From Patescibacteria group bacterium (GTDB taxonomy: Bacteria > Patescibacteriota > WWE3 > UBA101185 > 2-01-FULL-41-18), in contig JBBTST010000001.1 of the NCBI GenBank assembly GCA_038064575.1, forward strand, positions 99,650 to 163,649: DNA of 64,000 nt. Reading direction: 5' to 3'. Below the pieces are notes generated by a model. The model did not search any database. It saw nothing but the letters and a program-made list of their open reading frames with translations, and was not told the origin of the DNA. Numbering within the stretch: position 1 is the first letter of the stretch; the number at the start of each line of letters is the position of its first letter. The translations under genes and the position numbers were made by a program. Positions 8,786-42,383 of the stretch are shown piece by piece.

Positions 8786-10158
8786 GGCGCAAGCCTGTTA
8801 AGATCTCTAGGAAAGAGCGTAGCTTCCTTGACGTTGTTAAGACCTATTAGCTTTTGTGTCAGCCTTTCAAGTCCCAGACCTCCGCCTCCGTGACTTGGCA
8901 TCCCATATTTGAAGGCTTGTAAAAAGTATTGGTAACCCGGATCCTCAAGATCTCCCCCAAAATCAACCAGTTGTTTCACAATGTTAGCATAGCGGTGTTC
9001 TCTCCTACTGGTAGTGATAATTTCAACACCTCTAAAAATCAAATCCGCTCTTTCTGTAACTTCAGGGTTTGTCTCACTTCTAAAGTGGTAAAACTTCATG
9101 TGACTTGCCGGAAATTCCGTAATATAAACCGCTTCGCTGCCCCAGTGCTTTGCAGAATACTCACAAATGAATCGTTCCTCAGAAGGAGTAGGATCTTTTT
9201 CTTTTCTAAAATCCTCTCCTTTTTCCTTTAGATAAAGCTCATGCAGGTCTTTCATGGTAATTTGTGGTAACTCCTTTTTAAGAATTGGCTTTTCTGCTTT
9301 GAGCAGACTTAATTCCTTTTCATGAGTTTCCCACACCCGCTCACATGTAAAGTAGATTAACTCACCAAGTAGGGTTAATACATCCTGAAAGGCATTTATA
9401 AAGCCCATCTCAAAATCTATTGAAAGATACTCGGTCATGTGCCTTGTGGTGGAACTTGGTTCGGCTCTGTACGCTGCTCCAAACTCATAAACTCTTTCAA
9501 GAGACCCTACCATAATTTGCTTATAAAACTGAGGTGATTGGGCCAAAAACGCGCTTTTCCCAAAGTAGTCCAGTTTAAAAACCTCAGCACCTCCCTCAGT
9601 AGCCTGAGCCAAAATTTTAGGACTGTGAAATTCTGTAAAATCATTGGCTTTCAGAAATTCTCTGATTGCTTCTCCCACACCTGCCTGCACTTTCCAGATA
9701 CCTTGCTCCGTTACATTTCTCATGTTTACTATCTTGTTATCAAAGAGACTTTCAAGGTTTTCCGGTTTGTGATCTATTGGTTTGTCTATTTCTACAGGTG
9801 AGACATACTCAACAGGAACAACAACCGTAACTTTTGGCTTTCTAATTTCAACTCCAAGCTCGACTCTTTTTTCTTCTACCACGTCTCCTTCAACCAACAA
9901 AATAGTACCCGCATACAAACCCTTTAATTTTTCTGCTTCTTCCGACTGCTCATCAACTACCTGCACAAGCCCGCCCCTGTCTCTAATGACCAGAAAGGTC
10001 ATGCCTCCAAGCTCCCTCTTTTTGTGAAGCCACCCATAAATTTTTACTGTTTTTCCTACGTGCTTTGGAAGCGCAGTAGAAAGAACCCTTGGTGTAAACT
10101 CCTTAACTGTTGGTGTTTTTTTCATAAATAACTTTCTTAGCAAATAAACTTGGTGCAA
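8782..10158 (-). CDS. aspS: aspartyl-tRNA synthetase, archaeal/eukaryotic type (type 2)
   Basis: Class II motifs FRAE and GGGGLGLERL; motif-1 region FLAQSPQFYKQ matches AspRS type 2; N-terminal OB domain. The likely true start is an internal MKKTPTVKE near 10125. Confidence 0.8.
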   Translation of the reverse strand: MHQVYLLRKLFMKKTPTVKEFTPRVLSTALPKHVGKTVKIYGWLHKKRELGGMTFLVIRDRGGLVQVVDEQSEEAEKLKGLYAGTILLVEGDVVEEKRVELGVEIRKPKVTVVVPVEYVSPVEIDKPIDHKPENLESLFDNKIVNMRNVTEQGIWKVQAGVGEAIREFLKANDFTEFHSPKILAQATEGGAEVFKLDYFGKSAFLAQSPQFYKQIMVGSLERVYEFGAAYRAEPSSTTRHMTEYLSIDFEMGFINAFQDVLTLLGELIYFTCERVWETHEKELSLLKAEKPILKKELPQITMKDLHELYLKEKGEDFRKEKDPTPSEERFICEYSAKHWGSEAVYITEFPASHMKFYHFRSETNPEVTERADLIFRGVEIITTSRREHRYANIVKQLVDFGGDLEDPGYQYFLQAFKYGMPSHGGGGLGLERLTQKLIGLNNVKEATLFPRDLNRLAP

Positions 10159-11109
10159 TCAGGATGAGCCAGAATCAAGAAAGTCGCTGAAAAAAGCGGC
10201 TTTTTTGTTTGCTTAACTTTCTCTCTACCCCTTACTTCAAAATTTATTACTAAATAAAAAACCCGACCTGCGCCGAGTGGTTTCAAGTTCTTATGCTGCT
10301 AAACAACTGAAAGGTGCCAACCTACTTTATACTTAATTGACAGCTGTAACGGGCATTCCCGCTTTGTTTTACTCTCCCAAAATAGTAGGATTGGGATTTC
10401 TCCAAAGAGCTCAAGGGTGTCACATTCCCTGTCTAAGCTTTTTAAAACTATACAGTTGTAATATCAGATTTTTGTGGTGGGCGCAATAGATAAAAAGGAA
10501 AGGAGCCAGCAAGCTTAAGATTTCAAATGATCAATAATTTGGATCAATGAAAGAAATCTTAGAAACAGCTTGTCTGGCTCCAATAAGTTCTGGGTGACCC
10601 ACGAGGGTCTAGTTCGAGGGTCACCACAGTGAGACGAGGAGCTACGGGATGGCGGCGGACGGCAGATGCGGGAACCGATCAGGAATCGGGAGTGGCATTG
10701 TCGTAACCTCCTTTCCTTAAGTAGTCCAGTCGATAAGGATAAATTTATCACTTTTAAATTTTGATGCAAGAGGCAATTTTGGGGACAAAAACCACTATCC
10801 CTAAAAGGGTTATTAAAAGTTTGCTATTTGGGGTCAAACGGTTGGTTGATCCGGAAATATCTCTTGGGAGCGTTTTCCGGACCAACCGCTAGGAGTGGGT
10901 TAACTACGATATGGGCTCATGCCCGAGTGCCGCTTCCTGGTCCATTCTTCCGTCTGTGCATTACGGAAACGGATGAACCGGAAACGGCGAGTTGGGAATA
11001 AAGCTCGTCTTCATAGTTTACCCTCCTTTCAAATTAGACATTATCAAAATAGCTTCACTGGTGCAATAAGAAAAGAGACATGCAACAAAACTTATAAGTT
11101 AAAGGTGTG

Positions 11110-11170
11110 AAAAAAAGATTCGGGCCATCGAACAGTAGGAGTCCTCAAGGGAAGCTCTGTTCGATGGCCC
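11110..11170 (-). terminator. Rho-independent terminator of the M24 peptidase gene
   Basis: Perfect 14-bp stem GGGCCATCGAACAG/CTGTTCGATGGCCC at 11122-11135 / 11157-11170; on the minus strand it is followed after 5 nt by T7. Confidence 0.5.
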
Positions 11171-11290
11171 TACCGCCACGTCATCAGTTCAAGTTAGGAA
11201 AGTTATGCATAAATGCCTCCTTTCTCTAAAGAAACCGTGACATGCCAAACTTATAGTAGCAGAAATTTGCGTTTCACAAAATCGGAATTT

Positions 11291-12388
11291 TTACAATTCA
11301 ATAAGATCTGTGGAAAACTTGCCTAAAACCTCCGCCTTATCTTTGCGGCAGACAACAAGATCCTCAATCCTTACCCCACCCCACTCTTTAAAATACAACC
11401 CAGGTTCAATGCTAAAAACCTGCCCTTCTTTCAACCTATCTGAATTCGTCCTTCTGATAGAAGGCGCTTCGTGAATAGCCATGCCTATCCCATGTCCTAA
11501 ACCGTGAATAAACTTATCCTCAAGACCTTCTTTAACAAACACCTCATTAGCAGCGTTAAACACAGAATTTGCCGGAACTCCTGATTTAACTGCCTTAATA
11601 CCCTCATCGTGAGCTTTGACTACCAACCTATGGGTTTTTTTAACCCTCTCAGAAGCCCCACCCAAAGTCAGAACCCTTGTAGAGTCACCGCAGTAACCTT
11701 TGTACAAGGCCCCCCAATCAATTAAGATAAGATCACCCTTCTTAAGTTTGTTTGTGGAGGTTTGGTAGTGAGGAAGAGCAGCATTAGCATTTGTGGCAAC
11801 AATTGACGTAAAAGATTCTCCTTGGGCACCAAGACCAATCATTGCCTTTTTTAGTTTCTCAGCTATTTCTGCTTCAGTTATACCGGTTTTAATCACAGGC
11901 AAGATGGCTGCAAAGCCTGTATAAGTTATTTCCTGAGCTTTTTGCATCAATTTGATTTCTTCTTCCACCTTAATTTCTCTCAGAGCCCCGACTAAAGAGG
12001 TTGTAGCCACCAGGCTTTTTCCCTTTGTTAAGGCAGTGCTAAGCTCCACGAATTCGCTATATTTAAGGTCTTCGCTTTCAAAGCCAATCCTTTTTCCTTT
12101 GTTCTTATTCAAAAACCCAAGGATTAAGGACATAAACTCATTGCGTTCTGGTACAATTGTTATATCAATGTGGGCTGATCTTAATGCTAGGGCCTCATTT
12201 TGATAAAGCCTTGGCGCAAACAGATTCAGTTTTTCACCGTCAAAAATAAGATAGGACTCTCTGTCTTCAGGAACAGCACCTTTAAAACCCGTAAAATAAT
12301 AAATTGAGTAAAAATTAGAAATTAAAAGGCTATCAAGTTTTCTTTTTTGTACAAGATCTTTTAAATTTTTAAGCTTGTCGTCATTCAT
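11291..12388 (-). CDS. Xaa-Pro aminopeptidase / M24 family metallopeptidase
   Basis: Metal-ligand region HGLGHGIGMAIHE plus GQVFSIEPG; N-terminal creatinase-like domain. Confidence 0.8.
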   Translation of the reverse strand: MNDDKLKNLKDLVQKRKLDSLLISNFYSIYYFTGFKGAVPEDRESYLIFDGEKLNLFAPRLYQNEALALRSAHIDITIVPERNEFMSLILGFLNKNKGKRIGFESEDLKYSEFVELSTALTKGKSLVATTSLVGALREIKVEEEIKLMQKAQEITYTGFAAILPVIKTGITEAEIAEKLKKAMIGLGAQGESFTSIVATNANAALPHYQTSTNKLKKGDLILIDWGALYKGYCGDSTRVLTLGGASERVKKTHRLVVKAHDEGIKAVKSGVPANSVFNAANEVFVKEGLEDKFIHGLGHGIGMAIHEAPSIRRTNSDRLKEGQVFSIEPGLYFKEWGGVRIEDLVVCRKDKAEVLGKFSTDLIEL

Positions 12389-12450
12389 ATACTCTTTGTA
12401 ACAGATTTCTAGACCATTATAGGCAGTTGTTTGGGTAAATTACAAAAGAA

Positions 12451-12490
12451 TTTGGAGGAGAAGGGATGTAAAAACATTTCCTTCTCCCCC
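12451..12490 (-). terminator. hairpin plus T-rich tract downstream of the two-peptide unit
   Basis: On the minus strand, GGGAGAAGG ... CCCTTCTCC (9 bp) followed by TCCAAATTCTTTTG. Confidence 0.3.
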
Positions 12491-12508
12491 AATTATGCGC
12501 ACCCCCGG

Positions 12509-12643
12509 TTAGTTTTGGGTTCTACAGAGTTCGCACACTTGTCCTTTGATCACAATTGCCCCACATTGGCACCTGATAAAGGGCGTTCGGGCAAGCTTGC
12601 TAACACACAAAACTCTCTTGGCCTTACGGACTTTGGGAGGCAT
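12509..12643 (-). CDS. small Cys-rich zinc-ribbon-like peptide (44 aa): MPPKVRKAKRVLCVSKLARTPFIRCQCGAIVIKGQVCELCRTQN
   Basis: Starts 10 nt after the stop of the upstream peptide with an ideal SD (TAAGGAGAAAACCATG). Has a CxC...CxxC arrangement and is basic. Confidence 0.3.
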   Translation of the reverse strand: MPPKVRKAKRVLCVSKLARTPFIRCQCGAIVIKGQVCELCRTQN

Positions 12644-12653
12644 GGTTTTCTCC

Positions 12654-12836
12654 TTATTCTCCACCACCACCATGGCGAGGAGTGGACCAGCTTGGCCGGT
12701 TTTGACCTGGCATTTGGGCATTGGCAAACAGGCGACCATACTTTCTAACCTGCCAGACCACCCAAACTCTGCGTGCAACCGCTGCAAGTAAAACAAGCAA
12801 CAGAAGCACCAAAAGAAGCCACATAAGCGGATTCAT
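12654..12836 (-). CDS. small hydrophobic peptide (60 aa, one TM helix): MNPLMWLLLVLLLLVLLAAVARRVWVVWQVRKYGRLFANAQMPGQNRPSWSTPRHGGGGE
   Basis: ATG preceded by AAAAAGGAG; sits in a GC-rich island. Found by re-reading the minus strand, as an internal start within ORF 12654..12947. Confidence 0.3.
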   Translation of the reverse strand: MNPLMWLLLVLLLLVLLAAVARRVWVVWQVRKYGRLFANAQMPGQNRPSWSTPRHGGGGE

Positions 12837-13291
12837 TGTTATTTTTTCTCCTTTTTTAGTTTTTGGGGATGTGACTAGTGTACCAAAAGTCCATGTCCCA
12901 ATGCAAATCCATGTGCTGCAATCAACAGTACAATCGAATTTTGACAAAGCGTCAAGAAACCATCAAAAACCAAGGTCTGGTAAAATTGCCGTTGGTGGGA
13001 AGGAGCTTGCTTGTTCAAAAAGGCTTCCTTCCCACCAATCTAGCTACAAAATCACAAGCAGCAAACGCTAGAAGATTTGCCGCAACGCCATGACCTTAGC
13101 GAACATCCGTGACCGGCCACTCGGGGCGAGTCGGAGGATGCACCGGGTAAGGGCGATTGGGGTAGTTTGTCATCTTCCTTGGCTCCTTTCTTAAGATGTG
13201 TATCCAAAGCAACTTTCTCTTTAGGACACCTCTCAAAGTACAATAATTTGCCTCTCTGAAAGCTATACTAAAACAAGCATTTTTAGTCTAT

Positions 13292-13325
13292 GAAAACAAA
13301 AAAGCTCGGGATTTGATTCCGAGCT
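13292..13325 (-). terminator. Rho-independent terminator (minus strand)
   Basis: On the minus strand, AGCTCGG/CCGAGCT 7-bp stem followed by TTTTTTGTTTTC. Confidence 0.45.
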
Positions 13326-13510
13326 TGTAAAAGTTAATCAATACAAAAACGGAATCACACACCGAGCTTTATGTGATGTCTATACCAAGTGGCTATTGAA
13401 GTGAGTTTGAATACTGTTTCTCCCATGCAAGGGCAGATTACCAAAATATCACTTGGGCGTCAACCACCAAGCCCTCTATACTAATTCACCATCTACAGAC
13501 CACTCCCACA

Positions 13511-13564
13511 TAAACACAAAACCAAAAACAAAGACCCGACTTATCGTTTGAGATAAATCGGGTC
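13511..13564 (-). terminator. Rho-independent terminator (minus strand) ending the candidate sRNA
   Basis: On the minus strand, GACCCGA(TTTATC...GATAA)TCGGGTC composite stem followed by TTTGTTTTTGGTTTTGTG. Confidence 0.45.
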
Positions 13565-13717
13565 AGCCAATAAAAAAGGTACTTGCAAAGGTACAGAACC
13601 CCTTTTACTTTTTTGCGGGGTGTGCCGGCTTAAACCCTTCAGGAAAAGCTTACGCTCTTCAAGAGGGTCCTCCGGGCACAAGAGCCCGCTTTGGGAAAGG
13701 TTGGAGATTCGGTTCGC
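13515..13717 (-). ncRNA. candidate ~200-nt structured sRNA (rod-like fold; 6S-like or novel)
   Basis: Bounded by a sigma70-like promoter and a terminator. 5' and 3' ends form a perfect 11-bp closing helix (plus 13707-13717 cctttgcaagt / plus 13581-13591 acttgcaaagg) with further nested helices. No ORF. Confidence 0.3.
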
Positions 13718-13723
13718 CTTTGC

Positions 13724-13752
13724 AAGTAGTGTCTTTATAGGATTTGTCAAAA
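13724..13752 (-). promoter_or_regulatory. sigma70-like promoter (minus strand): TTGACA-17bp-TATAAA
   Basis: Reverse complement of plus 13747-13752 is TTGACA; reverse complement of plus 13724-13729 is TATAAA; the spacer is 17 nt. Confidence 0.4.
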
Positions 13753-13782
13753 AGATTGTCAAGCGCTCAGTCTCTTGGTCTA

Positions 13783-14175
13783 TTAAGTTTGCGTTTCTTT
13801 CAAAATCAGGGTTTTTCCATCTTTCTCATCTTCCACTAACACAAGCACCCAACCGCGCCCGCTAATCTTATATGTATCACCATCTCTTATAACGCAAAAG
13901 CCCAGAGGGCCAACAATTCTTCCCAAAGTATTTATTACAAACTCAAACTGCCCGCTTAAAACCAAACAGGACTCTTTTCTACCCACATCCTTTGCCATCT
14001 TTACTTCTTCCGGATACTTTCCACCTGTCATCCTGACAATAGCAAAATACTTACTCAATCCAAAAGGTCTCACAACCCAAACTACAGAACCACCACTCAA
14101 CTCATATTTTTTTATGAAAGAATACATAGTGATCTTCTCCTTTAGCAAATTAGGCTTTTCTGAAAAAAGCCTCAC
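13783..14175 (-). CDS. hypothetical protein (possibly cupin-like beta-barrel)
   Basis: 130 aa with no diagnostic motif recognised. Confidence 0.35.
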   Translation of the reverse strand: MRLFSEKPNLLKEKITMYSFIKKYELSGGSVVWVVRPFGLSKYFAIVRMTGGKYPEEVKMAKDVGRKESCLVLSGQFEFVINTLGRIVGPLGFCVIRDGDTYKISGRGWVLVLVEDEKDGKTLILKETQT

Positions 14176-15472
14176 TGAATTTTAAACCTTTTTCCAAAAG
14201 CTCAATGTTAAAGTTTTCATTTGCACCATGCATATTGCAATCATCATTCCCCAATGAAACTAAAAGCGTATCCACCCCTAATATTTCTTTGAAATCTAAA
14301 ACAACCGGAATACCTCCTCCCACAGGCTTAACCAACACCTCTTCCTGAAAAGCGTCTTTCAAAAGCTTTTTCACCTCTTTAACTTTTTGGGAGCTTATGT
14401 CTATTTTGACTGAACCATAAGGAACGCTATGAGAAATCTCATAGTCCACGTATTTTGGAACATTTTTGTTTGCAAAGTCTTTGAATGCTTTCAAGGCAAC
14501 TTCTTCTTTTTGAGAAACAACCGTTCTGAAATTAATTCTAGCCTCTGCCGTAGCAGGAATTATATTTGCATAACCCTCTCCTGTATAACCTGTCTTGATT
14601 CCGGTTACCTGAAGAGTGGGTCTCAAACCGGTTTGAGTATGAAAATCAATACCTACCTCAGTAAGCAAAGCCTTTACACCCGTAGAAGAAAACAAACTCT
14701 TTTTTCCCTGAAACAACACGGAATTGTTTTTCACCTGTTCAGAGGTGATTTTATCAACCCCTTTATAAAATCCGGGAATGGCCACTTTATTATCTTTATC
14801 AAAAAGTTTAGCTAAAAACTTACTAAGTTCATAAGCTGCATTAGGAACAGCCCCACCATAAATTCCTGAATGTAAGTTGTTGTTTGCAGTCTTAAATTTT
14901 AGGGTTAAGTTACAGCCTCCTCTCAAAGAATATTCAATTGTGGGCTTACCTGAAACCACCTCTCCATCTGAAACTAAGATATAGTCAGATATAAGTTTTC
15001 CTTTGTTCTTTTTTATAATTTCTCCAATTTCAGGATTTGAAGTTTCTTCATTACCCTCAATGAGAAACTTCACATTATATTTAAGTTTTCCTTCCTTGAT
15101 TAGTTTTAAAACGGTGAAAATGTGTATTAGAATTTGCCCTTTGTTGTCTACCACACCTCTTGCAACAAGCCTTCCGTTCTTCTCTTCAACTTTAAAAGGC
15201 TCGCCGTCCCAACCGTCTTCTTTTAAAGCCGGCTGAACATCATAGTGACCATAAACCAAAATAGTCTCTTTACTGTTGTTATTAATACTTGCAAACACAA
15301 CTGGGTTTGTTTCCAAACCTTTAAATATTTCCACTTTAAAGTCAGCGGCCTCAAATAGTTGTTTAAGCCAAAAAACAGTCTTTTCAATCTCTTCAATATA
15401 AGACCTATCTGTAGAAACACTTCTAAAGCTTACAAACTCCCCAAGCATCTTTAAATAATTATTATCAAGCAT
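14150..15472 (-). CDS. M20 family metallopeptidase (dipeptidase-like)
   Basis: VYGHYDVQPA motif and GNEETS, typical of M20 dipeptidases. The ORF-table start at 15607 is probably an artefactual extension; the likely start is MLDNNYLK. Confidence 0.7.
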   Translation of the reverse strand: MLDNNYLKMLGEFVSFRSVSTDRSYIEEIEKTVFWLKQLFEAADFKVEIFKGLETNPVVFASINNNSKETILVYGHYDVQPALKEDGWDGEPFKVEEKNGRLVARGVVDNKGQILIHIFTVLKLIKEGKLKYNVKFLIEGNEETSNPEIGEIIKKNKGKLISDYILVSDGEVVSGKPTIEYSLRGGCNLTLKFKTANNNLHSGIYGGAVPNAAYELSKFLAKLFDKDNKVAIPGFYKGVDKITSEQVKNNSVLFQGKKSLFSSTGVKALLTEVGIDFHTQTGLRPTLQVTGIKTGYTGEGYANIIPATAEARINFRTVVSQKEEVALKAFKDFANKNVPKYVDYEISHSVPYGSVKIDISSQKVKEVKKLLKDAFQEEVLVKPVGGGIPVVLDFKEILGVDTLLVSLGNDDCNMHGANENFNIELLEKGLKFSEAFFRKA

Positions 15473-42306: not shown

Positions 42307-42383
42307 CGGGGTGTGGCGCAGTTGGCTAGCGCACCAGTATGGGGTACTGGGGGTCGGAGGTTCGAGTCCTCTCACCCCGACCA
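42307..42383 (+). tRNA. tRNA-Pro (anticodon GGG)
   Basis: Cloverleaf: acceptor CGGGGTG/CACCCCG; D-arm GCGC...GCGC; anticodon stem CCAGT/ACTGG with loop ATGGGGT; T-arm GGAGG-TTCGAGT-CCTCT; discriminator A and an encoded CCA. Confidence 0.85.

Follow-up and report, generated by a model that had tools for sequence, protein, structure and literature searches.

Positions 12389-13782 of the DNA analysed here, a stretch of 64,000 nucleotides (the window) from contig JBBTST010000001.1 of a Patescibacteria group bacterium, form an island between annotated genes whose small elements recur at related loci. The island is bordered upstream by an ORFan gene (13783-14175, minus strand) and downstream by the gene for a PepQ/PepP-type Xaa-Pro peptidase of family M24 (11291-12388, minus strand). 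It contains four unannotated micro-open reading frames (micro-ORFs B, C, E and F), all on the minus strand and together making up about one third of its length. Read along that strand, the order is A (an RNA), B, C, the terminator-like hairpin T2, hairpin D, E, F, hairpin G and then the M24 promoter. These elements exist; ahead of M24, two relatives again have B, C and D, and one of the two shows the whole order B-C-D-E-F. We read the island as an attenuator-gated micro-protein operon with proline-rich sensor ORFs and a probable link to amino-acid supply, accompanied by RNA A as an independent unit; judged from sequence comparison and predicted folding, we give this reading an even chance of being right.

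Bacteria of the candidate phyla radiation (CPR), or Patescibacteria, have tiny genomes from which most amino-acid biosynthesis is missing, and little gene regulation is assumed for them. Their intergenic DNA is seldom examined, and gene callers skip ORFs of 14-60 codons. Our literature search found no report of such attenuators, or of regulation of these kinds, in CPR bacteria.

The comparison draws on the loci of M24 homologues, the nearest of which, among ~5.8 billion proteins, are only 58-48% identical to the protein encoded in the window. Locus L029 (M24 49% identical) has the full order B-C-D-E-F-hairpin-M24. Upstream of its orthologous M24 gene (52% identical), L026 carries a 62-aa membrane ORF, a B homologue, a proline-rich ORF and hairpin D. 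L028 (55%) shows F, a hairpin and M24, its upstream part being cut by the contig end, and L025 (58%) has a promoter, a 57-aa ORF containing SDPPPTPPVP, a hairpin and M24. Since B, C and D are syntenic with M24 in L026 and L029, whose M24 proteins are only 49-52% identical, the cluster dates back to the ancestor of a narrow clade and was not imported recently.

ORF B and its attenuator-like hairpin

Unit B consists of the following features.

13463-13435, minus strand: promoter-like site PB, TTGACG-17-TAATCT, with the ATG of ORF B beginning 8 nt past the -10 hexamer
13426-13355, minus strand: ORF B, a predicted near-leaderless ORF of 23 codons, MGETVFKLTSIATWYRHHIKLGV
13370-13292, minus strand: attenuator-like structure formed by a long hairpin (13370-13301), with an intrinsic terminator (13326-13302) as its 3' half, and a U-run to 13292

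The geometry of PB is kept in both relatives, with TTGACG-17-TATAAA and 8 nt to the ATG in L026, and TTGACT-17-TATTAT and 9 nt to the ATG in L029. The counterparts of ORF B read MKEAAIFLLQRHISYWHRHKQLGV in L026 and MFKTITTYSHRWPRLLDI in L029. This stretch is barely alignable between the loci; the ORF has 23 codons in the window, 24 in L026 and 18 in L029, which means that all indels are multiples of three and that the frame has been preserved. In all three loci the long hairpin is the minimum free energy (MFE) fold, and the UGA stop of ORF B falls at an equivalent point of its 5' strand. The B region is 75% identical to L026 at the nucleotide level over 83 nt, and the terminator at 13326-13292 is conserved in both L026 and L029 with at least 75% nucleotide identity.

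We modelled the three loci by thermodynamic constraint folding of the transcript up to the end of the 3' arm of the terminator, with a 30-nt ribosome footprint masked. The free RNA formed the long hairpin, abutting the U-run. With a ribosome at the stop codon the short terminator remained. The 3' arm of the terminator was unpaired only with the ribosomal A-site at two or three specific codons, namely CAU CAC AUA in the window, (AGA) CAC in L026 and UGG CCA CGU in L029. The codons at the critical position form no uniform run (CAU CAC in the window, CAC AGA CAC in L026 and AGA UGG CCA CGU in L029). In their logic these three predicted fold states match classical attenuation. Neither a promoter scan of the window nor inspection by eye of the window, L026 and L029 revealed a consensus promoter between terminator B and ORF C, which fits read-through as the route into C-F.

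Unit B resembles attenuators of the trpL/hisL/pheL type in that the predicted transcript opens with a short ORF, in its intrinsic terminator with predicted alternative pairings, and in that folding predicts termination on the free RNA and with a ribosome at the stop, with read-through only if the ribosome stalls earlier. It differs from them in being near-leaderless, and in having two or three His, Arg or Trp codons, varying by locus, in place of a run of codons for a single amino acid. Its state without translation is moreover a 1:4 long hairpin, not 1:2 plus 3:4 pairing, and the genes downstream are micro-proteins and a peptidase in a CPR host, not biosynthetic enzymes. Leaderless short-ORF attenuators have been described in mycobacteria, where polycysteine ORFs form the first cistron and are proposed to tune downstream expression (bioRxiv 10.1101/834739). 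Like them, B would be a leaderless short ORF that comes first in its operon, with particular codons as the proposed signal; it belongs to another phylum and has other codons and an explicit intrinsic terminator.

Proline-rich ORFs, hairpin D and the E-F pair

Between terminator B and the M24 gene, and again beyond that gene, we identified the following features.

13189-13096, minus strand: ORF C (ORF 13173-13096) with Shine-Dalgarno (SD) sequence AAAGGAG, MTNYPNRPYPVHPPTRPEWPVTDVR, 25 aa with 7 Pro
13083-13048, minus strand: T2, a terminator-like hairpin with a 9-bp stem and UUGUGAUUUU, beginning 13 nt past the ORF C stop
13038-12992, minus strand: hairpin D, arms 12992-13004 and 13026-13038, 13 bp perfect or 15 bp with one bulge
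12978-12986, plus strand: conserved 9-nt block 3' of hairpin D, reading TGGTAAAAT, an extended -10 consensus
12941-12955, no strand assigned: palindrome TTGAC-N5-GTCAA
12853-12654, minus strand: ORF E (ORF 12836-12654) with SD AAGGAG, a predicted 60-aa micro-protein
12656-12509, minus strand: ORF F (ORF 12643-12509) including its SD, a 44-aa zinc-ribbon-like micro-protein, ...TPFIRCQCGAIVIKGQVCELCRTQN
12490-12454, minus strand: hairpin G, after ORF F, then AAAUUCUUUUG
12445-12416, minus strand: M24 promoter-like site, TTGTAA-18-TATAAT, 10/12 matches
11032-10961, minus strand: first downstream proline-rich micro-ORF (ORF 11014-10961) with SD GAAAGGAGG, MKTSFIPNSPFPVHPFP, ending Pro-stop
10716-10642, minus strand: second downstream proline-rich micro-ORF (ORF 10698-10642) with SD GGAAAGGAGG, MPLPIPDRFPHLPSAAIP, ending Pro-stop

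The core motif of ORF C is HPP[TS]RP, and its codons are mostly rare ones (CCG, CCC, CGC). Between HPPTRP in the window and HPPSRP in L029 there are six nucleotide differences, five of them at third codon positions (hypergeometric probability ~0.004); these substitutions indicate that ORF C evolves as a coding sequence, with selection at the protein level. The equivalent position in L026 is taken by a proline-rich ORF, MTYPSYRPAYPPPARP... Both strands of the window were scanned for ORFs of 7-70 codons that follow an SD and have a Pro content of 22% or more; of the four ORFs returned, three (ORF C and the two downstream ORFs listed above) flank the M24 gene. ORF C has 7 Pro in 25 residues and the downstream ORFs 5 in 17 and 6 in 18. 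The PFPVHP of the first downstream ORF resembles PYPVHP of ORF C, with synonymous differences, and by this likeness the two ORFs are paralogous. Codon choice in the three ORFs is skewed towards the rarest Pro and Arg codons, CCG accounting for 11 of the 18 Pro codons against 14% genome-wide (P = 5e-6) and CGN for all 4 Arg codons against 12% (P = 2e-4). Each of the three has an extended SD (GAAAGGAGG) and precedes a very stable structure; that of the second downstream ORF is the hairpin GGUGACCC...GGGUCACC (z = -6.8). Rare codons, Pro-Pro motifs and Pro-stop ends are as expected of translation-speed sensors such as mgtL/mgtP, and an Xaa-Pro peptidase and a YbaK-type deacylase, both encoded nearby, would be sensible outputs of proline sensing. 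The link between these ORFs and the neighbouring genes is put forward tentatively, from sequence and position.

In Salmonella, the very short leader ORFs mgtL and mgtP contain Pro codons, and the speed of the ribosome at these codons is the proposed signal (PMC3641672; PMC12856214). The ORFs described here are likewise short, proline-rich, placed in long leaders and in tandem with a second regulatory element. They differ in their very strong SDs, in an HPPxRP or PxPVHP core, in rare CCG codons and in two Pro-stop ends; their neighbours encode an Xaa-Pro peptidase, an aminoacyl-tRNA synthetase (aaRS) and a YbaK-like deacylase, not Mg2+ transporters, and the conserved hairpin D downstream of ORF C does not overlap the ORF. 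By eye we saw no sequence similarity to mgtL, so that the resemblance is functional only. Translation arrest peptides of the RAPP type are also encoded by short upstream ORFs, and their Pro-containing sequences control the progress of the ribosome (PMC10951233, PMC12992588). The micro-ORFs here share with these the short length and the Pro-containing sequences, but none has a RAPP or RGPP motif and they do not lie upstream of Sec/YidC genes.

The two downstream ORFs belong to a gap on the other side of the M24 gene (10159-11290, minus strand) that has 42.7% GC, no annotated genes and three SD-led micro-ORFs with the same grammar as the island. MKTSFIPNSPFPVHPFP and MPLPIPDRFPHLPSAAIP each precede a very stable structure (z = -5 to -7), and the third micro-ORF, MHNFPNLN (11210-11184), is followed by a 14-bp hairpin and a U7 terminator (11170-11105). 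As L028 has only 275 nt in the gap downstream of M24, the micro-ORFs there are lineage-specific additions. The sole tRNA gene in the window is tRNA-Pro(GGG) at 42307-42383 on the plus strand. By standard decoding rules this tRNA reads CCC and CCU, not the CCG favoured by the proline-rich ORFs.

Hairpin D is conserved at the top of its stem (AAGGR / YCCUU) and in its loop core (UUUGMAA). Among the three sequences, 8 of its 15 pairs show compensatory changes and 97.7% of cells are paired; none of 500 shuffles reached the observed covariation, and slid registers gave at most 3 compensatory pairs. On this covariation, hairpin D is demonstrably real. The earlier note on this DNA had reported it as a 15-bp bulged inverted repeat, and the repeat is indeed present (13 bp perfect, 15 bp bulged), with its right end, given as 13050, placed 12 nt too far. 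C and D as a classical attenuator were considered and rejected, since D does not overlap ORF C; the only structure within reach of a ribosome terminating on ORF C is T2, which is specific to the window genome and absent from L026 and L029. An ORF starting in the loop of hairpin D was rejected too, since its frame across the conserved nucleotides in the window is not the one found in L026/L029.

The 9-nt block next to hairpin D is conserved as TGSTAAAAT in the window, L026 and L029, with differing flanks. Acting as a promoter element, it would give rise to an antisense RNA whose first base, ~12993, is also that of D. Patterns of the type TGnTAAAAT are not enriched in the window (7 found, 8 expected). 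The palindrome TTGAC-N5-GTCAA, which the earlier note took for an operator-like site at 12932-12946, does exist and is unique in the window, but it lies at 12941-12955. The spacer that holds it is absent from L026 and L029; as it is not conserved, the operator was rejected, and the palindrome is probably of no significance.

ORF E has a single predicted transmembrane helix at its N-terminus, and its tail is rich in Pro and Gly and ends in GGGGE. Its counterpart in L029 (69 aa) is in the same position, and that in L026, a 62-aa ORF ending in GGGQ, is relocated upstream. ORF E is taken as a gene because of its SD, its location and its close linkage with F; it is also listed in one public gene call (L004) made for this same sequence. 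ORF F has a counterpart in L028, MFAWVRGLFGHKATPFIQCGSCGKTVIKGEECPHCGYQN, encoded directly upstream of M24 with the Cys ligands retained. Over the last 27 aligned positions (26 codons and the stop) the two have 9 identical, 7 synonymous and 11 non-synonymous positions, so that synonymous changes make up 7 of the 16 positions with the same residue (or stop); these counts indicate that ORF F is under selection at the protein level. A word-indexed protein search with the ORF F alignment gave no candidates, and an exhaustive HMMER search gave one marginal match to a 629-aa protein, leaving ORF F with no relatives in the protein databases searched. At the E-F junction (12644-12656) the TAA stop of E is inside the SD of F (TAAGGAG), with 10 nt between the ORFs, and the junction in L029 is similarly tight. 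This arrangement suggests that the membrane protein E and the zinc-ribbon protein F are translationally coupled. Hairpin G, predicted to be a weak terminator of the micro-ORF operon, is matched by strong hairpins at the same position in L028 and L029.

RNA A, composition and database searches

Upstream of unit B lie three further features.

13762-13734, minus strand: promoter-like site PA, TTGACA (13762-13757), 17 nt, TATAAA (13739-13734), read from the sequence
13727-13572, minus strand: RNA A, a rod-shaped RNA of ~156 nt ending in a U6 run
13564-13523, minus strand: second terminator after RNA A, a 13-bp stem (hairpin 13564-13533), then UUUGUUUUUG, with a U-run to ~13523

PA follows directly on the stop codon (13785-13783) of the ORFan gene. 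In RNA A, a stem of ~21 bp closes the rod, and the terminal stem, of ~24 bp, carries a GUAA tetraloop; the internal region between them comprises 14 and 12 nt that are bridged in the MFE fold by just four weak pairs (a CUUU/AAAG helix). As a single sequence of 221 nt the region has an MFE of -90.1 kcal/mol (z = -7.65), equalled by 0 of 200 shuffles, and RNA A folds better on the minus than on the plus strand. A search of Rfam with only 241 nt gave no match for it at E<=10, and a covariance model of RNA A matched only itself in 175 kb of related loci. A signal recognition particle (SRP) RNA was considered and rejected, the apical region, as read from the sequence, being without GGAA/AGCA motifs. 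By its predicted fold and sequence RNA A is an independent, lineage-specific gene for an orphan structured small RNA (sRNA). With 6S RNA (RF00013) it shares the length of ~156 nt, a promoter and terminator of its own and, in the predicted fold, an extended irregular rod with a central ~14/12 nt largely unpaired between closing and terminal stems. It differs in having no covariance-model match at E<=10 and in a central 'bubble' bridged by four weak pairs, and we regard a 6S-like function, suggested by the modelled fold, as doubtful. The adjacent ORFan gene encodes 114 or 130 aa according to the start chosen. It has no Pfam or NCBIfam match, and the 114-aa version finds only itself among ~5.8 billion proteins. 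The ORFan gene and RNA A are the lineage-specific part of the neighbourhood.

The island has 44.6% GC against a mean of 37.5% (standard deviation 2.1%) for equal-size windows across the 64 kb, and ranks 4th of 1253 such windows, the maximum beginning at 12501. The shift in composition that the earlier note had seen is thus real but modest, and 'GC-rich' applies only relative to an AT-rich genome. The homologous regions in the relatives are themselves 2-8 GC points above their contigs, which marks the composition as intrinsic, made up of CCG/CGC codons and stable helices. Rfam at gathering score, applied to the whole window, had no match in the island and only one tRNA-Pro elsewhere; at E<=10 on 10000-14500, 13520-13760 and 10240-10520 it gave only chance matches of the microRNA type and no relevant family. 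ARAGORN found no transfer-messenger RNA (tmRNA). Pfam and NCBIfam gave no match for any micro-ORF or for any ORF of at least 60 aa on either strand, and there is thus no pseudogene debris. BLAST of the island against the window found no repeats, and no terminal inverted repeats bound the island.

In 10000-14500, a scan for sigma-70-type promoters gave 1 consensus promoter against 7.2 expected from shuffled sequence; the scan demands T at position 6 of the -10 hexamer, and hence PA is absent from its list. Terminator-like hairpins numbered 9 against 4.7 expected, about a twofold excess, and within the island the scan found no plus-strand terminator.

The picture drawn in the earlier note, of a cluster of small-RNA and small-protein genes with their own promoters and terminators, is supported, and one result that it named as refuting it, a known housekeeping RNA spanning most of the island, did not turn up. 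Its single near-consensus promoter on the minus strand has become three promoter-like sites (13762-13734, 13463-13435 and 12445-12416), its two minus-strand hairpin-plus-T-run terminators are found at 13564-13533, with the U-run to ~13523, and at 13326-13292, and its tandem micro-ORFs with strong SDs correspond to E and F. It was right that no ORF over 60 aa has a plausible start (E is exactly 60 aa) and, in view of the empty Rfam searches of island and sub-regions, that no described element could be matched. To call the island largely non-coding was misleading, given four micro-ORFs of which C and F show substitution evidence for coding and B frame-preserving indels. Neither the near-leaderless ORF B nor the proline-rich ORF C appears in the earlier note, nor does the recurrence of this grammar in the gap beyond the M24 gene.

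An identical copy of the M24 protein is encoded on NCBI contig CAYHMR010000003.1 (GCA_964357935.1, Hainich groundwater) and on several ENA and Logan contigs. Searched with this protein, genome contigs yielded only Planctomycetota-type homologues of at most 35% identity and without synteny. The terminator-B pattern had 11 matches in metagenome contigs, of which only L040, from the same organism as L026, is homologous; a scan of viral contigs gave no matches.

Proposed mechanism and alternatives

On the attenuation reading, PB would start a near-leaderless mRNA whose first 23 codons, ORF B, encode a leader peptide. ORF B runs into the long hairpin, the 3' half of which would serve as the intrinsic terminator. 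In the free transcript, or with a ribosome at the ORF B stop, a hairpin would stand beside the U-run and transcription would end. A ribosome stalled a few codons before this stop, at His/Arg codons in the window genome, would cover the outer 5' strand; the inner 5' strand would then hold the 5' arm of the terminator, the 3' arm would be left single and RNA polymerase would read on through ORF C, hairpin D, the linked E and F and, probably, some of the message for the peptidase. Together with its two paralogues on the downstream side of the M24 gene, ORF C would most likely sense the speed of translation at proline, tying the status of tRNA-Pro and EF-P to neighbouring genes of amino-acid supply and tRNA quality. 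The wider neighbours, an M20 dipeptidase upstream and a non-discriminating aspartyl-tRNA synthetase (AspRS) and a YbaK-like deacylase downstream, fit the theme of amino-acid supply. We infer the transcription starts, the attenuation, the sensed signal and the coupling to the peptidase, and the mechanisms are drawn from three or four sequences.

If this is right, CPR bacteria would use classical ribosome-mediated attenuation together with proline-rich sensor ORFs, attached to peptidase and tRNA-related genes, and an auxotroph could match its scavenging of peptides to the levels of charged tRNA, a logical arrangement. A lineage with almost no described small genes would gain one orphan structured RNA and two or more micro-protein families that have escaped annotation, and a GC-elevated, seemingly 'empty' gap in an AT-rich streamlined genome could mark dense small-gene and RNA content. 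A further-reaching version, in which the three proline-rich ORFs and the leaderless attenuator B form a dedicated translation-speed sensing system for a local proline-salvage and tRNA-quality regulon, seems to us unlikely. Such a regulon could comprise the M20 dipeptidase, the Xaa-Pro peptidase, the non-discriminating AspRS and the YbaK-type deacylase, with tRNA-Pro/EF-P (and His/Arg) as the signal; attenuation would then control peptide scavenging instead of biosynthesis in an amino-acid-auxotrophic CPR host.

Several points weigh against an attenuator-gated operon. The long hairpin of B has 1 compensatory pair out of 22, with 89% of cells paired and controls that are not significant, and what argues for it is sequence conservation. 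The footprint model is thermodynamic, not kinetic, and the read-through codons vary by locus (His/His, Arg/His, Trp/Pro/Arg) and, although His and Arg recur, do not single out one amino acid as the one sensed. Hairpin D lies 20-58 nt past the ORF C stop. Between ORF F and M24 there are both hairpin G and a good promoter, which may give the peptidase a transcript of its own. In L026, E has a different location and F is missing, and the cluster is absent from the more distant M24 loci L027, L030, L043, L044, L046 and L047 (the L042 locus is truncated by the end of its contig). For RNA A, the sequences searched contain no homologue whatever. Finally, the full homologous loci number three and share common ancestry, and conserved order does not prove function.

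The same elements might be independent tiny genes without regulatory coupling, their adjacency to M24 being inherited synteny only. B would then be a short mRNA or a dual-function sRNA with an efficient terminator, and C, E and F stand-alone genes with unrecognised promoters. The strong SD of each of C, E and F, the hairpin beside the U-run in both conformations of B, the separate promoter of M24 behind hairpin G, the displacement of E and loss of F in L026, and the look of a paralogous gene family among the three proline-rich ORFs would all suit such an arrangement. It leaves less well explained why no consensus promoter was seen between terminator B and ORF C, by the scan in the window or by eye in L026 and L029, why the ORF B stop keeps its place in the hairpin and why, in the folding, a defined ribosome position abolishes the terminator in every locus; the strong rare-codon bias of the proline-rich ORFs is also unusual for efficiently made peptides. 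We hold this explanation to be possible, if on balance unlikely. A module controlled by antisense RNA, akin to type I toxin-antitoxin systems, in which a transcript from TGnTAAAAT runs across D and C and represses E or C, would account for the 9-nt extended -10 match conserved in three loci, for the predicted start at the first base of D and for the small size and hydrophobic N-terminus of E. But the island is without a plus-strand terminator, the motif is not enriched, E does not lie downstream of C and D in L026, and E has a long hydrophilic tail and translational linkage to F unlike known type I toxins; the block is equally explicable as a signal in the sense-strand RNA, and we consider the antisense module quite improbable. 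Bioactive peptides are a further alternative, the proline-rich ORFs encoding ribosome-targeting products like the proline-rich antimicrobial peptides of eukaryotes, which the Xaa-Pro peptidase would process or detoxify. Three paralogous ORFs with RP/HP motifs do flank the gene for such a peptidase, the motif is conserved at the amino-acid level, and CPR bacteria live attached to other cells. The peptides are, however, near-neutral or acidic and not strongly cationic, lack an export signal, have neither transporter nor modification genes in their vicinity, use rare codons that argue against high output, and vary widely in length (14, 25 and 39 aa) and sequence between relatives, which makes this idea very improbable.

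Horizontal acquisition, raised in the earlier note, or the decay of a larger gene or mobile element could explain a GC content 7 points above the window mean, the want of homologues for RNA A and the adjacent 114-aa gene, and the transposase gene that L025 carries in the corresponding interval. For B-F this origin is largely refuted, and overall we accord it only a very slight probability: B, C and D are syntenic with M24 in L026 and L029, F is found in L028 and a proline-rich ORF in L025, the corresponding regions of the relatives are GC-elevated too, ORFs of at least 60 aa on both strands give no Pfam signal, no repeats bound the island, and three micro-ORFs keep separate SDs and starts in L029, which shows that they are not pieces of a single gene. 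A single known housekeeping RNA (6S, SRP, RNase P, tmRNA, riboswitch or intron) covering most of the island is scarcely credible. The long rod of RNA A, with its weakly paired centre and GNRA tetraloop, has something of the look of one, but Rfam has no match at gathering score in the window and none of relevance at E<=10 whether 4.5 kb or 241 nt was searched, ARAGORN reports no tmRNA, and the apex of RNA A is without the motifs of SRP RNA.

The neighbourhood also shows other features at the related loci. In L026 (7790-7960) the position of E and F between D and M24 is filled by short inverted repeats (GATTCCG...CGGAATC, GGGATGACA units) that look like miniature repeat elements. The M20-M24 interval of L025 (2438-3425) holds a helix-turn-helix and rve-family transposase pair and several hypothetical genes, which marks the neighbourhood as prone to insertions. 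Upstream of the non-discriminating AspRS gene in the window (10255-10470, minus strand) is a conserved leader of ~200 nt that ends in an intrinsic terminator (10278-10261) and is 73% identical to L028 1640-1800, with four compensatory pairs. An Rfam T-box model gave no match to it even at E<=10. The leader contains GUGACAC (the Asp codon GAC followed by A) and GGUUGGCACC, in which UGGC would match a G73 tRNA end; it resembles a degenerate T-box, and may be an atypical T-box or a new aaRS leader.

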